From NCBI GenBank assembly GCA_010015585.1, contig ML975179.1: DNA of 44,259 nt, one strand, 5' to 3'. The notes beneath the pieces were generated by a model. That model was not told the DNA's origin, did no database searches, and saw only the letters and a list, made by a program, of their open reading frames with translations. Positions 38,749-44,259 of this stretch are shown here, one piece after another. The first letter of the stretch is position 1. Each line of letters opens with the position of its first letter. Made by a program: the position numbers and the translations under genes. The DNA is from Eremomyces bilateralis CBS 781.70. Lineage: Eukaryota.

Positions 38749-38946
38749 AAAGATGGTTAGCCTACTAATTTCTGTGACCACCAACTCGCTCAACGTGCAA
38801 CTGCAGAACTCGCGGAAATGGTGATGTAGAGATAGATATATAATAGAGAAATGAACGTGTAGTATACAAGATATATCATAAGTCGAGAGTCATAAAAACT
38901 CCACCATCTGAGGTCCTTTGGATCGCTCCACGAGTCGCTCCTGTAC

Positions 38947-38999
38947 CACGCCTTTGATTTGCTCCCCTCGCACGCCTTGGATTTGCTCCCCTCGCACGT
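38947..38999 (-). repeat. 24-bp tandem repeat encoding RRARGAN(P/Q) in the MULE transposase tail
   Basis: CACGCCTTKGATTTGCTCCCCTCG x2 plus a partial third copy. Confidence 0.85.
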
Positions 39000-40526
39000 C
39001 TTTGCCTTGGTATAGGCTGTGGGCGTGGAGCACGATTAGCCTCTCGATCTGCGGTTTCAAATCCAACCTCTTCGCAATGAGAGGACGTTCCACGCGGTGT
39101 AGGCGTAGACTGCGAGGCTTGGAGTTCACCAGATGGAGAGACCAAGACAATGCCCTGTAGCTTTGGCTGGCGAACGGTCCGCTGAGAGGTAGGAATTGCA
39201 GGCTCTCGAAGATGACGGAATGGATCCTGTGCAGGACCGAAGACAGGCTTCCTGAAATATAGCCAGTGCTCATCAATCAAGGAAAGGGGAATCTGCCAGT
39301 CTCTAATCCGCCGGAGGTTCTCGCTAATAGTATGGGAGCACGGTAGGCCCATCGATTTAGCAAAAGTCCCTGTACAAGGCTGGAGAGGTATAGGGCGGGT
39401 AAGGAGAGTCGCGCGAGCTAATTGAGTCTGTTCCATCAGCTAATTCAAGGCCGGTTTGGAGACCCTGTCGAGGAGGTCGTCAGAGATGACTGAATTACAT
39501 CTCCACCGCGTTAAAGTCCTAATAGAGGCCGTATCGTTGGCGGCAATAGACTCATTGGCGTTCTGTACGACTGCCTGGAGTATCAGAGTAGTCACATTCA
39601 TCAAATCTTCTTTTGCTTCTGTAACGTGCTGCTTGATCACGCCGTGAGCGCATAGTTAGCAAAATTCCCGAACTCAAAGTATGTGTTAGAACCGCGGAGT
39701 CTCCATTATAGCCATTTCCAGAGATATCAACGTACGTATCTCATAGCTCGATCTCACTTTGATCTCCGCGGTTTTAAAGCCACTTACCTTCTTAAAATCT
39801 TTCAGAAATTGAGCACGGAGCTTCCTCATGTCCTCCCTTTGCGCCTTTGTCTGATATAAGATATCAAGATGTCTTGGAAGTACGAACTTTCGCGTGAGAT
39901 TGGTATTAACATTCATAAAGATATGCCAATTACATAGATGGCGCGGAATCCCGGCGAAAACGAGCTCGGGTGCATTGATCAAGGCGTCCTCGCTATCCGT
40001 GAGTATTAGACGTGGAAGAAGTATACCTATGGCACTTTTGAGCTGACTTAATACCCAAATATAGTCGTCTTCGGTTTCTCCCTTCATAAAGGCGAACGCG
40101 ATATCAAAGTTTGTCTTTGATGCCGTTGCCCCAACGGCATGGAAGAGAGGCATCTTGTACTTATTAGGGCTTGTCTACTTCGTAGCTGGCAGGTTTAAGA
40201 AGCAGGGGCCAGGTGGGCGTTTTGGCTTCTCTATTATCACGAGCGTAGCGAGTTACTTAAGTGGTATTGGTAGAATCAAAAACTTTTTATTGCCCTCTCA
40301 TTGGCTAGACAGGGGTTCGCGAAAGGAAACCACGTGATTTATGAGAGGAAACCACGTGATTTCGATGCTTTTTACTGTTTACTTTCTGTCGCTCTCTTTC
40401 CTCTCCACCACTCTTCCCACATGGGCCTCGCAGGGAGGCCTAACGGGCGTAGGGATACCAATCAATCAATCTACTTCTTATTCCTGATCTACCACTTACT
40501 TATCCTTCTATTATTACGCCTCCGAC

Positions 40527-43500
40527 ATGTCATCTTCTGGAGACGCCGGTGGTAGAGTATGCTCGAATTGTAGGTCCTGGAGGGTTGATAAGGAGTTTAC
40601 TTCGAAGCGTCGCCGACTACTGGTCAAGAAGTGCTGGCGATGTCGTTACGGCCACGATCATGGTGATGCTGTAGGTAGAGTGAATGATTCGAATACGTTC
40701 AAGCTGACATCATTAGACCCCCTATCTTCGACCCGCCGCTACGTCTACGCGAGACGCCTCGTCCTCGCAACCAACCGACACTGAGGACGATAGGTCTTGG
40801 AGGCGGGAGGCTTCCCTATTCCACCGTGCCGGAATACATAGCCAAGACGATGGGGATAGAGCCGCTGCTCGCAGGGAGTATAATGCTATGTCACGGGCTC
40901 ATCGCGCTGCTACTCGTCTACACCGTAATGTCCAGCCGCTACCAACGTTCGGGGATTATCTCCAACGACGGAGGCTATCACCTTCACATCAACCGCAATC
41001 AGGTCAAGGTGCTCCTGATGATGGCGACAACGGGTTTAGGCGTCTAAGTCCGATCTCCTTGGCCGGGTTATCCCAAATTCAGGGCGATGAGCAACCCCGT
41101 ACACGTCATCAGGAAGATGAGCAACGCGATCGTACACGTCAACGGACAGATGAGCAAAGCGATCGTACACGTCAACGGAGAGATGAGCAACGCAATCGTA
41201 CACGTCAACAGCGAGATGATGGTCGTACAGAAGCACTTCAGCGCGGAGATGTTCGCCTCGATCCCCAGTCCCGGGATTTCAACATCCAGGATGCCAATCT
41301 TTCCGAGCAGGATTGGGGATACGTTAAGGCCTTCCACCAGGAGATGGCTAGTTTGAACCTTGAGCACTGCGCCCAATGTGACGAAAAATGGTTTGATATG
41401 CGTCTCGTGGATGGTATATGTCATCGATGTAGGATCGACGATAGGAAACGAGGCGATTTACCACCGCTGTATTCCGCAGAGAATCATTTAAATCCTGGTC
41501 TGGGCCCGTCGCATCACAATCTTCCTGAGTTATCTCAAGTAGAGGAGCTCCTTATCGCCCGTGTCCATTGTGCTGTGGAGGTTCGAAAGGTTAACGGTCT
41601 TCAGTACCGTTATACAGGACATATCATCAACTTTATGAGAGACGTGGGGCGTGTATACAATCGACTACCTCTCCTTCCGAAAGACCTTGAGATCGTTGTC
41701 CTTCGCCCTGCGAATTGGGATCAGGATCCCCGTATGCAGCGCCAGTTTCGACGCGACTACCGTGTTCGCCGTACTGTCATCGAGCAGTGGCTAACCCATC
41801 TCAAGGTTCACCCCCCTAGATATCTGTCGTGAGCAGTTGCTAACCCATCTAAAGGTTTACCACCCCGGATATCGCGATGTCGTCGTCGACCCTAGCCGCG
41901 TGCAGCATCTTCCTATTGATGATAGTATTATGGAAGAGGTCGGCGTCCAGACTATTGAGGAAGAAGAGCTAGGAGGCGGCGATGACGATACGGGAGACGA
42001 GGTAGATTACGTCGCCGTAGTCCCGGATCTCCTCCAACCCCAGACGGAGATGGAGCAACTTCGGCAGCATGTCGATGATGCTCATGAACGTCGACGTGAG
42101 CATCTGACGATGCCTGAGTTTAGATTGACTCCTCTATCTGAGTTTAACCACTCTCAGGCTCTTCTAAGCCTGGCGTTCCCAAGCTGCTTCCCCTGCGGTA
42201 TTGGGGACTTCGTTCATCCCCGTCTCCGTAAGGTAGAGTATCGTGAATATATTAAGCATCTGATGAGGTTCCACGATGGTCGCTTTGCGAAACATCCGCG
42301 CCTACGGTATGTCCTTTTTAACACTCTTTTCCGGAAACAGGTCAGTACCCGTGCATCTTACTTCGTTCGTCAACGTCCTGAGCATAATGATCTATCTCTT
42401 GAGGAACTCCGTGCTGCTTTTGCGGATGACTCTCCTGAAGCCCAGGCCCTTCTGAACTCTATTATCCGTTTTTCAGGGAGTCTACGCGGCACGCGGCCCT
42501 ATTGGATTGGGCGTGGTAAGCAGCTTGAAGCTACCGTGCAATGGTTTGGGTCTCCCGACATCTTTTTAACGCTGTCGGCCGCCGATTACCACTGGGATGA
42601 TCTACAGCGTCATTTACCTCAATATGAGGAGTGGCGTAATGGATCTCCAGCGGAGCGGATCTCAATCTCACGCCGGAACCTCCGAGACTATCCCCATATC
42701 GCCGCCTTCCTCTTTCATCGGCGCCGTGAGGCTCTCTACAAGAATTTAGTAGATCCTAAGTTTAACATCCGCGATCAATGGGGCCGATACGAGTGGCAGG
42801 GTCGCGGCTCGTCGCACTCACATTTCCTCCTCTGGCTAGACCGTGCCTGCCCTAACAGCGAGCTTGATCGTATCCCTACGGAGGATCTCCCTGCCGCCCT
42901 TGAGAAATTTGCGCAGTTCTGGGGCGGTCACATCACGGCGTTAAACCCCGAACCTTCCCGTCGGGTGCGACCAGAGGATGAGCGGAGTGCTATCGCGCTA
43001 AGTCCCCACACCCAGGAGAATATACTGGCCCATTACTCGGCTATCATCAACCGTGTACAGAGGCACCACTGCAGTGATGCGTACTGCCTCCGTACGAATA
43101 AACGCACTGACCGGAAGGAGTGTCGTTTCTACGCCCCATGGCGGATCCGGGATGTGCCTGTGGTTACGAAGGATGAAGGCAACCCTAGGTTCTTTAACTT
43201 TCGCGGTATCCGGAACGATGATCGGTTAAATCACAGCAACCCTGCCCTTATCACAGCCTGGCTTGCGAATATCGATATCACGCCCTGTACAGGGAGTCGA
43301 GCAGTATTAGCGTATCTTGGAAAGTACTGCTCAAAACCAGAGAAGAAGACGGCCACCTTCCACGATATCCTAAAACATCTCCTAACGATCGTTCCCGAAC
43401 ATACGCGCCGGCCATTCCTTTCGCTGACCACGAAGATTATGAATCGTCTAATTGGTGAGCGGGATTGGTCAGCCCAGGAGGTTTCCCATATTCTTCTTGA

Positions 43501-44259
43501 TCTCCCCCTCCAAGTCTCTTCACGCGTGGTGATTTCCGTCGATTGTCGCCCGGAGGTGGAGCAGCCCCAAGGAATTGAAATCCAGGACGATGGGACTATC
43601 CAGAGCGGCCTCTCCCCTCTTCAAAAGTATAAGCAAAGACCTGAAGCGTTTAACGACATTTCCTATCTTGAGTTTCTACGTTGCTATGAATTCGCACGGG
43701 TTAACTCAATTCGGAAGAGAGGAGAAGGGAAGGAGCGGGCGTTAAATTACTTCCCCCGATATTCATCGGTCGGCGATACCCGCGAAGACTGGTGTCGCGT
43801 TAAACTGATGCTACATCACCCCTTCCGCCGTATGGATGATCTCCTCCGGCCCGAGCTTGATGGTCTGCTTTTTGCGTCGTATTCTGAGGTGTATTCCGCG
43901 TCTTGCGTGAATGGTCAGCATAACCATCCGGTGGATCATTACGACCCTATTGTTCTTGCGGACGAGGATGAGTTTGAAGAAGGCGCCAATGAGGAGGAGG
44001 ATCAGCAAGGGAGCTGGGATGAGCTCGCCGGTCAACTGCCTGGTCGCGATAGAACCGTTCTAGAGGACCCAGATGCCCTTGGTCAACGACCTCTTGACCG
44101 TGAGTACGATTGGGCGTCCCATGTCGGGAAGTATGAGATTACGAAGGAGTGGTGGGCCACTGCAAAGGCCCAGTATCCCTATATTCATGAAGCTGTTCCC
44201 TTCGCACCTGATACCGTTGAAAAGCTGAACGCTAAACAACGTATAACATACGATATCCT
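40527..44259 (+). CDS. Helitron Rep(HUH)-Pif1 helicase protein, 3'-partial, predicted introns 40671-40716 and 41806-41854
   Basis: N-terminal CxxC..CxxC, a second Cys cluster CAQC..CHRC, LPELSQVEELLIARVH and LAFPSCFPCG...HDGRFAKHP. Rep motif 1 is IFLTLSAAD, motif 2 is EWQGRGSSHSHFLLW (42791-42835) and motif 3 is YLGKYCSK (43313-43336). RDWSAQE follows, and LNAKQ at the window end probably starts the helicase. The frame from 41855 is open to 44259 by my translation and is absent from the ORF track because it has no stop. Confidence 0.9.
41086..41229 (+). repeat. ~33-bp coding tandem repeat (DEQxxRTRQxx) x ~4.5 in the RepHel N-terminal region
   Basis: Units start at 41086, 41116, 41149 and 41182, with a partial unit at 41215. 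Confidence 0.9.
41774..41873 (+). repeat. ~49-50-bp tandem duplication within RepHel spanning an AAG|GT site
   Basis: 41782-41824 versus 41831-41873: 37 of 43 nt identical by hand alignment. Confidence 0.92.

Follow-up and report, generated by a model that had tools for sequence, protein, structure and literature searches.

Introduction

Well-supported natural intron gains whose source sequence can still be recognized are described as few (PMC4974935, PMC3265369). Here we analyze a candidate for such a gain in the RepHel gene carried by a Helitron element from Eremomyces bilateralis CBS 781.70, which lies at the end of a 44,259-nt stretch of contig ML975179.1 (GenBank assembly GCA_010015585.1; one strand, 5' to 3'). 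We refer to this whole stretch as the window and number it from its first letter. Our analysis leads us to propose, with a probability that we put at roughly 0.8, that positions 41806-41854 (49 nt) make up a U2-type spliceosomal intron, to which a tandem duplication of coding sequence gave rise in an expressed, multi-copy Helitron.

The AGGT tandem-duplication model of Rogers was re-enacted with a minigene for ATP2A1 by Hellsten et al. (2011), with about 16% of the product spliced; the ATP2A1 event itself is dated to over 420 million years ago, and its repeat can no longer be seen (PMC3265369). As in that case and in the model, the RepHel intron would have arisen in a single step from duplication of an exon segment carrying AG|GT, with the GT of copy 1 and the AG of copy 2 used as splice sites and with the peptide left unchanged. 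Unlike the ATP2A1 event as described there, the RepHel repeat has arms that still match at 84%, its intron is only 49 nt long, its candidate branch site is of coding origin and its host is a transposase gene. Furthermore, in contrast to the roughly 16% reported for the minigene, the spliced form of RepHel is the only one that was assembled.

In the RdRp gene of potato, Ma, Lan & Niu (2016) describe a duplicate that spans an existing intron-exon border, with inheritance of a branch site, a polypyrimidine tract and a 3' site and activation of a cryptic GTAAG donor (PMC4974935). The RepHel case is similarly a recent intron with a known source, a tandem duplicate of neighboring gene sequence, but that source appears to be purely exonic, as in the original model. 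Closer in this respect are the novel introns in Drosophila that Lehmann et al. (2010) ascribed to regional tandem duplication of coding sequence containing a proto-splice site (PMC2891723), since there too an exonic duplication is described in which one copy turned into an intron. Those cases come from a comparison of 12 genomes and conserved host genes, whereas RepHel belongs to a multi-copy mobile element and its joined form is seen in a sequencing run. Finally, introners are transposons whose insertion gives rise to an intron at the target site (PMC12130899) and, like the case described here, they tie mobile elements to new introns in fungi and other eukaryotes. The RepHel intron would be their reverse, having arisen inside a transposon gene by local duplication and spreading only with that gene.

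The mechanism that we invoke is already known as the Rogers model, and the case stands out for how plainly it can be read: visible repeat arms, a branch site of coding origin, a splice junction and many diverged copies. In the open-access literature and on bioRxiv we found no report of intron gain by tandem duplication inside a Helitron or any other transposase gene.

Results

The proposed intron lies within a tandem repeat that joins two reading frames (feature coordinates are collected in Table 1). Tandem Repeats Finder reports 41774-41873 as 2.0 copies of period 49 with 84% matches, 1% indels and a score of 144, and direct reading resolves the repeat into arms that differ at 8 of 50 positions, through seven substitutions (four transitions and three transversions) and a 1-nt deletion in copy 2. 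The ancestral repeat unit is 50 nt, one base having later dropped out of the intron. Ungapped identity at period 49 reaches 37 of 43, compared to best values of 25-28 in 30 shuffles of the window, and a score of at least 36 at this period is attained at only three places in the whole 44 kb. No stretch of identity shared by the copies exceeds 13 nt; AG|GT sits in a separate identical stretch of 6 nt, with AAG|GTT present at 41803-41808 and repeated at 41852-41857. Repeat-induced point mutation is ruled out as the source of the differences between the arms, as three of the seven substitutions are transversions and an indel accompanies them, and error-prone synthesis during the duplication is thought unlikely, as it would need eight changes in 50 nt.

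The upstream open reading frame (ORF; 40717-41832, 371 codons) matches Pfam DUF6570 (E=2e-22) and stops at the TGA at 41830-41832. The downstream frame (41795-44257, 821 codons), displaced by +1 relative to the upstream one and still open at the end of the window, carries a match to Helitron_like_N (PF14214; E=8e-39) that covers the whole profile (1-191 of 191). Excising 41806-41854 fuses the two into 1164 codons without a stop, or 1212 codons counted from the ATG at 40527; the exon that contains this ATG lies upstream of 40717, where the ORF of the initial annotation began. The window stops at 44259, ahead of the expected start of the PIF1 helicase, for which PF05970 is found in all long homologs.

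The frame is restored by every one of the 60 possible 49-nt deletions that start at 41770-41829, and both a Trp codon and an HPGY motif at this site are kept in 20 of the 60. Only one of these 20, 41806-41854, has GT..AG ends (GT at 41806-41807, AG at 41853-41854). Likewise, among 114 frame-restoring GT/GC-AG pairs nearby, Trp and HPGY are retained without an indel only with 41806-41854. When scored against a profile of 181 homolog segments, the product of this excision ranks highest at 295.4 bits, with 251.7-290.5 bits for eight alternative products, among them those left after deleting copy 1 or copy 2 entirely and those of five other GT-AG pairs.

To look for joined and unjoined forms we used contigs assembled from sequencing runs and aligned to the window. 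Four runs contain parts of the element and supplied the contigs; two more, X5 and X6, contain next to none of its sampled words. X1, X2 and X3, which share one organism label, contributed 70, 292 and 177 placed contigs, respectively; X1 is labelled 'RNA? (a guess: may be DNA)' and X2 and X3 are labelled 'DNA?'. X1 has 94% of the sampled element words. An X1 contig with a depth of 627.5 joins 41802 to 41852 and thereby skips 49 nt, with 6 ambiguous letters at the joint; shifting the cut by +3 gives GT..AG ends and corresponds to the exact removal of 41806-41854. A second X1 contig, from a diverged copy and with a depth of 101.7, likewise skips 49 nt. Together these two joined contigs fully explain the depths of the X1 bins here (621.4 and 560.0). 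No X1 contig covers the 49 nt, and because the two joined contigs account for all of the depth, there is no unspliced form at this site in the X1 assembly. By contrast with X1, none of the 292 X2 and 177 X3 contigs shows a skip of 49 nt or of 46 nt. One diverged copy can be followed across runs because its counts of mismatched letters, 17 and 40, are the same in X1, X2 and X3, and it has the segment in X2 and X3 but not in X1.

A second joint provides an internal comparison. In a single X1 contig with a depth of 685.8, 40670 is joined to 40717, skipping a 46-nt segment with GT..AG ends that has the canonical signals of an intron (intron 1), and this joint too is absent from X2 and X3. X1 thus also lacks a canonical intron. 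From this loss of intron 1 in X1 only we infer the RNA nature of the run; that X1 contains spliced RNA we consider very probable. The 41802/41852 joint would then be the work of the spliceosome. X1 is not purely spliced message, and either other copies keep intron 1 or some DNA is present.

None of the others among the 114 splice pairs appears as a joint in the X1 contigs. They include 41771-41819 (GTACTG..TAG), which would put Leu in place of the conserved Trp, and 41829-41895, which has the strong donor GTGAGC and would lose HPGY. Programmed frameshifting or read-through is not needed to connect the two frames, as a joined form exists. We also observed that the GT at 41745 and the exonic GCTAAC...AAG could form a 61-nt intron (41745-41805) that would leave the frame open as well, for which X1 has no joint.

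Within the proposed intron, GCTAAC at 41839-41844 matches the consensus CTRAC, its candidate branch A lies 11 nt before the last base of the intron, and AAG provides the first AG after it. Judged by sequence and spacing, this hexamer probably acts as the branch site. The length of 49 nt is close to those of the three other introns examined in the window (46, 51 and 58 nt), and an AAG acceptor is also found in the last intron of RFC5 (51 nt, 2308 to 2258 on the minus strand). The spliced C-terminus of RFC5 is identical to that of its nearest homolog (P0364; Eremomyces bilateralis, 92% identity; next best 67%).

The duplication is shared by the family of copies. The element is multi-copy, as judged by contig depths of hundreds to thousands and by the number of contigs placed in each run, and every X2 and X3 contig that crosses the site carries the duplication, including those of copies that are 12-18% diverged. 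Both repeat units are crossed without a gap by copies in these runs that have 38 mismatches to the window in 327 positions and 39 in 337. A copy that is about 82% alike reads through the region as well, lacking only single bases there, at 41818 and at 41824, two intronic positions. Because the duplication is present in copies 12-18% diverged, it is older than much of the divergence within the family, and it is an old feature of this Helitron family.

Variation among copies also indicates how the two frames have been constrained. Among the 40 best-supported variants of the 784 in total, the only ones used in this test, 39 are coding, and 24 of these 39 are synonymous when each side is read in its own frame, where 28% would be expected (binomial p=1.6e-5). 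Upstream (exon 2 side) 12 of 20 are synonymous, and downstream (exon 3 side) 12 of 19. The excess on both sides points to purifying selection on both frames while the copies diverged, and selection on both frames in turn means that the frame shift must be bridged in the message.

Relatives of the element have the motif once. Fungal RepHel proteins with DUF6570, Helitron_like_N and PIF1 domains (Fusarium oxysporum, Metarhizium, Talaromyces, Fonsecaea) share the domain order seen within the window and the same motif at the site, but identity over the matched part is only 46-48%, the motif is present in them once, and four loci read as DNA show no interruption at this site. The closest proteins found, from Fusarium, Metarhizium, Talaromyces, Fonsecaea and similar fungi, are 46-62% identical, with best identities of 48%, 62% and 47% in three protein searches. 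These homologs align to the spliced product at the site without an indel. Among 181 unique homolog segments, W-x7-H-x-x-Y is present in 155 and W-x7-HPGY in 98. In four DNA loci of relatives, from metagenome contigs, the motif is likewise present once, within uninterrupted ORFs of 1508-1638 codons (4/4); the homolog used as query for these loci (P0010) is about 49% identical to the window product over the junction region.

Differences between the two arms were divided according to whether they fall in exonic or intronic halves. Four could be polarized as damaging, namely the 1-nt loss and a change of TGG to TTG (Trp to Leu) in copy 2 and changes of CAC to CCC (His to Pro) and of GGA to AGA (Gly to Arg) in copy 1, and all four fall in the intronic halves, a 4/4 pattern that has a chance of 1 in 16 and is weak alone, so that we use it as supporting evidence only. 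Exonic halves differ by a synonymous change, CCC at 41864-41866, where most family copies and copy 1 have T at 41866, and by His/Tyr at a variable position just before the conserved His, where relatives mostly have His or Asn. One Leu-synonymous and one Ile/Val difference could be assigned to neither copy.

Most of what the initial annotation had read from the window is borne out by these results. It had described a segment of about 49 nt with GCTAAC...AAG|GT as tandemly duplicated, and Tandem Repeats Finder and direct reading agree with this, although the original unit is 50 nt. Its placement of the site in a Helitron RepHel gene is supported by the DUF6570 and Helitron_like_N matches; the frame shift and the stop that follow if the repeat is retained, and the open frame obtained by removing 41806-41854, were both recovered. 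Its claims that the branch-point sequence derives from duplicated coding sequence (GCTAAC is part of Trp-Leu-Thr codons) and that damaging differences lie in the would-be intronic halves agree with what we found, as does the AAG acceptor that it had noted at 2258 in RFC5, for which the junction is matched by the C-terminus of the nearest homolog. The transcript junction of 41805 with 41855 that would follow from its reading is present in X1, a run that we take to contain RNA.

Other parts of that annotation need to be modified. The intron was called new, which holds in relation to other Helitron families but not in the sense of being private to this copy, as diverged copies share the duplication. 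The single-copy, intronless state is found in distant relatives, whereas the family copies seen across the site in X2 and X3 have the duplication. The suggestion that the weak GTTCAC donor limits production of full-length transposase is unsupported, X1 being without a contig over the 49 nt, and a rare retained form may exist that is compatible with the contig data.

Table 1. Positions in the window of the 5' part of the Helitron and of features in its RepHel gene
Feature	Positions	Strand	Remarks
Helitron element, 5' part	40416..44259	+	left edge approximate, runs past the end of the window; DUF6570 and Helitron_like_N
RepHel exon 1	40527..40670	+	ATG and 48 codons, with a CxxC...CxxC motif; phase 0 join to 40717
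RepHel intron 1	40671..40716	+	46 nt, canonical GTAGGT ... GCTGAC ... TAG; joint in X1 only
RepHel exon 2	40717..41805	+	DUF6570; ends in the 5' half of repeat copy 1
Tandem repeat copy 1	41774..41823	+	50 nt; first 32 nt exonic, last 18 nt intronic
RepHel intron 2 (proposed)	41806..41854	+	49 nt, phase 0; donor GTTCAC, putative branch site GCTAAC, acceptor AAG
Tandem repeat copy 2	41824..41872	+	49 nt, one base lost; first 31 nt intronic, last 18 nt exonic
In-frame TGA	41830..41832	+	terminates the protein if intron 2 stays in
GCTAAC, predicted branch site	41839..41844	+	same hexamer in the exon at 41790-41795
RepHel exon 3	41855..44257	+	Helitron_like_N Rep domain; open at the end of the window

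Discussion

These findings are consistent with a model in which a frameshifting duplication was converted into an intron by signals already present in the coding sequence. The ancestral sequence would have read ...TGG CTA ACC CAT CTC AAG GTT..., with AG|GT eleven bases on from GCTAAC. We envision a scenario in which 50 nt of this sequence, including AAG|GT, duplicated in tandem, so that the GT of the first AG|GT (41806) could become a donor and the AG of the second (41853-41854) an acceptor, while the Trp-Leu-Thr codons of copy 2 (TGG CTA ACC) would have supplied a perfect branch site. Splicing would then take out exactly one unit in phase 0 and return the mRNA to its unduplicated frame; with one unit spliced out, the duplication would leave the protein unaffected. 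The element would have stayed functional, multiplied and diverged with the intron aboard, its intronic halves drifting (one base lost, Trp to Leu, His to Pro, Gly to Arg) and its exonic halves staying under selection. The initial annotation had proposed that the site fits the duplication model based on AGGT proto-splice sites, and indeed the repeat, both AG|GT junctions and the unduplicated product all fit it.

Several points weigh against this interpretation. The donor GTTCAC has neither a purine at +3 nor a G at +5 and fits the consensus at GT only (plus the AAG at the end of the exon). The usual donor consensus in filamentous fungi is GTRNGT, and donors that fit it are present in intron 1 (GTAGGT) and in the RFC5 introns (GTAAGT and GTGAGT). 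In the diverged X1 copy the joint was set at 41780/41830, and its 20 ambiguous letters fall short of 41805. The RNA label of X1 is a guess and no run is on record as RNA. Furthermore, the data consist of contigs, not reads, and a single sample represents the RNA side, which leaves strand and rare unspliced forms invisible. At 40700, a position within intron 1, three X1 contigs with a summed depth of 499 read G where the window has C, while the copy of the window type is spliced. Three protein searches yielded no relative above 62% identity, so the choice between gain and loss rests on distant relatives, and the branch on which the intron was gained is left unbounded by relatives at or below that identity. 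To these can be added the small set of variants behind the synonymous test and the modest odds of the polarity pattern.

Could the repeat instead be a frameshift lesion in a decaying copy, with the joined form in X1 representing genomic DNA of intact copies that were never duplicated? Tandem duplications of 49 or 50 nt in transposon ORFs are common inactivating lesions, and such a reading would draw on the poor donor and on the merely guessed kind of X1. It is difficult to reconcile with the data from several directions: X1 is also without the canonical 46-nt intron 1, whose ends are GT..AG; the duplication is in all X2 and X3 contigs across the site and none of them skips it; one recognizable diverged copy has the segment in X2 and X3 and is without it in X1; and the synonymous excess holds on both flanks, each in its own frame. 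In addition, 1212 codons are still open even though the arms have come to differ at 8 of 50 positions. We consider a decaying lesion improbable.

Two further explanations accept the repeat as we describe it and place the error elsewhere, and we regard each of them as very improbable. The X1 joint could be an artefact of template switching by reverse transcriptase or of collapse by the assembler, in which case RNA in the cell would keep the 49 nt. Template-switch artefacts classically arise where direct repeats flank an apparent intron, as they do here, and the donor is non-consensus past GT. Yet an artefact would be expected to yield a minor form and the joined form is the sole one in X1 (627.5 + 101.7 = all depth); the joint falls in the 6-nt AG|GT stretch rather than in the 13-nt identical stretch that switching would favor; and since that longest identity is well under the 31-letter words of the contigs, collapse is not expected. 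Alternatively, the intron is real but predates the repeat, and acquired its exon-like sequence later through border duplication or intron sliding. The potato RdRp case shows that duplication across an existing intron-exon border can yield an intron (PMC4974935), and our protein searches gave no close outgroup. Against such an older intron, the repeat halves (18 + 31 nt) account for the whole of it with no remainder, and four related DNA loci and homologs in raw contigs cross the site in one ORF.

We therefore favor birth of the intron by tandem duplication of coding sequence. A bolder version of this model, towards which we lean with some hesitation, holds that the duplication hit an active Helitron, was neutralized at once by the branch site and AG|GT, and was then copied genome-wide. 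The family would on that account be a replicated time series of one newborn intron, efficiently spliced despite its GTTCAC donor and two bases shorter in one subfamily, and would represent the first such case in a transposase gene. Should this version hold, it would show that a branch site and GT/AG at the right spacing suffice for the birth of an intron in short-intron fungi.

Three things are visible together at this locus: both repeat arms, a splice junction in a run and unduplicated relatives. As the host gene is a multi-copy transposon, a single gain is now represented by many copies that are drifting apart. Across the full genome these could make the ageing of a newborn intron measurable, through drift of intronic versus exonic halves, small indels and changes to the poor donor, and the locus lends itself to asking which signals a 49-nt fungal intron needs. 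It also illustrates a route by which a mobile element could survive an otherwise lethal lesion.

Additional features of the element and the window

The low-complexity N-terminal part of RepHel contains an in-frame tandem repeat of 33 nt at 41098-41219 (3.7 copies, 88% matches). This region varies strongly among family copies, with several variants at 41194-41226, and in one diverged copy 40882-41174 is replaced by 176 other letters.

Run X4, which is labelled as organism B, yielded a single 271-nt contig at 43367-43637, with 0 other letters and a depth of 4.6, and no other part of the element. It may stem from carry-over of material from one sample into another or be a piece of sequence that is shared, and it carries no information on the repeat site.

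Elsewhere in the window, the 3' end of RFC5 (minus strand, 2258-2422) contains a 58-nt intron with the signals GTAAGT..TCTAAC..TAG and the 51-nt intron mentioned above, with GTGAGT..GCTAAT..AAG.

At the left edge of the element, contigs from X1-X3 carry unrelated letters before 40416, and therefore the repeated unit starts at about this position. Many of these contigs diverge before 40416 and again after 40451 and rejoin at 40507-40510, and in one X3 contig 40452-40509 is replaced by 25 other letters. This pattern suggests a left terminus near 40416 and a 58-nt segment that is variable among copies. Helitrons characteristically have 5'-TC and 3'-CTRR termini with a hairpin at the 3' side and insert between A and T; the 3' end of this element lies beyond the window. 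Directly upstream of this edge are broken ORFs for a MULE-type transposase (38876-40174, minus strand), with a match to PF10551 (E=7e-20) for 39686-40174. Transposons are thus clustered at the end of the window, with MULE remnants beside the Helitron.

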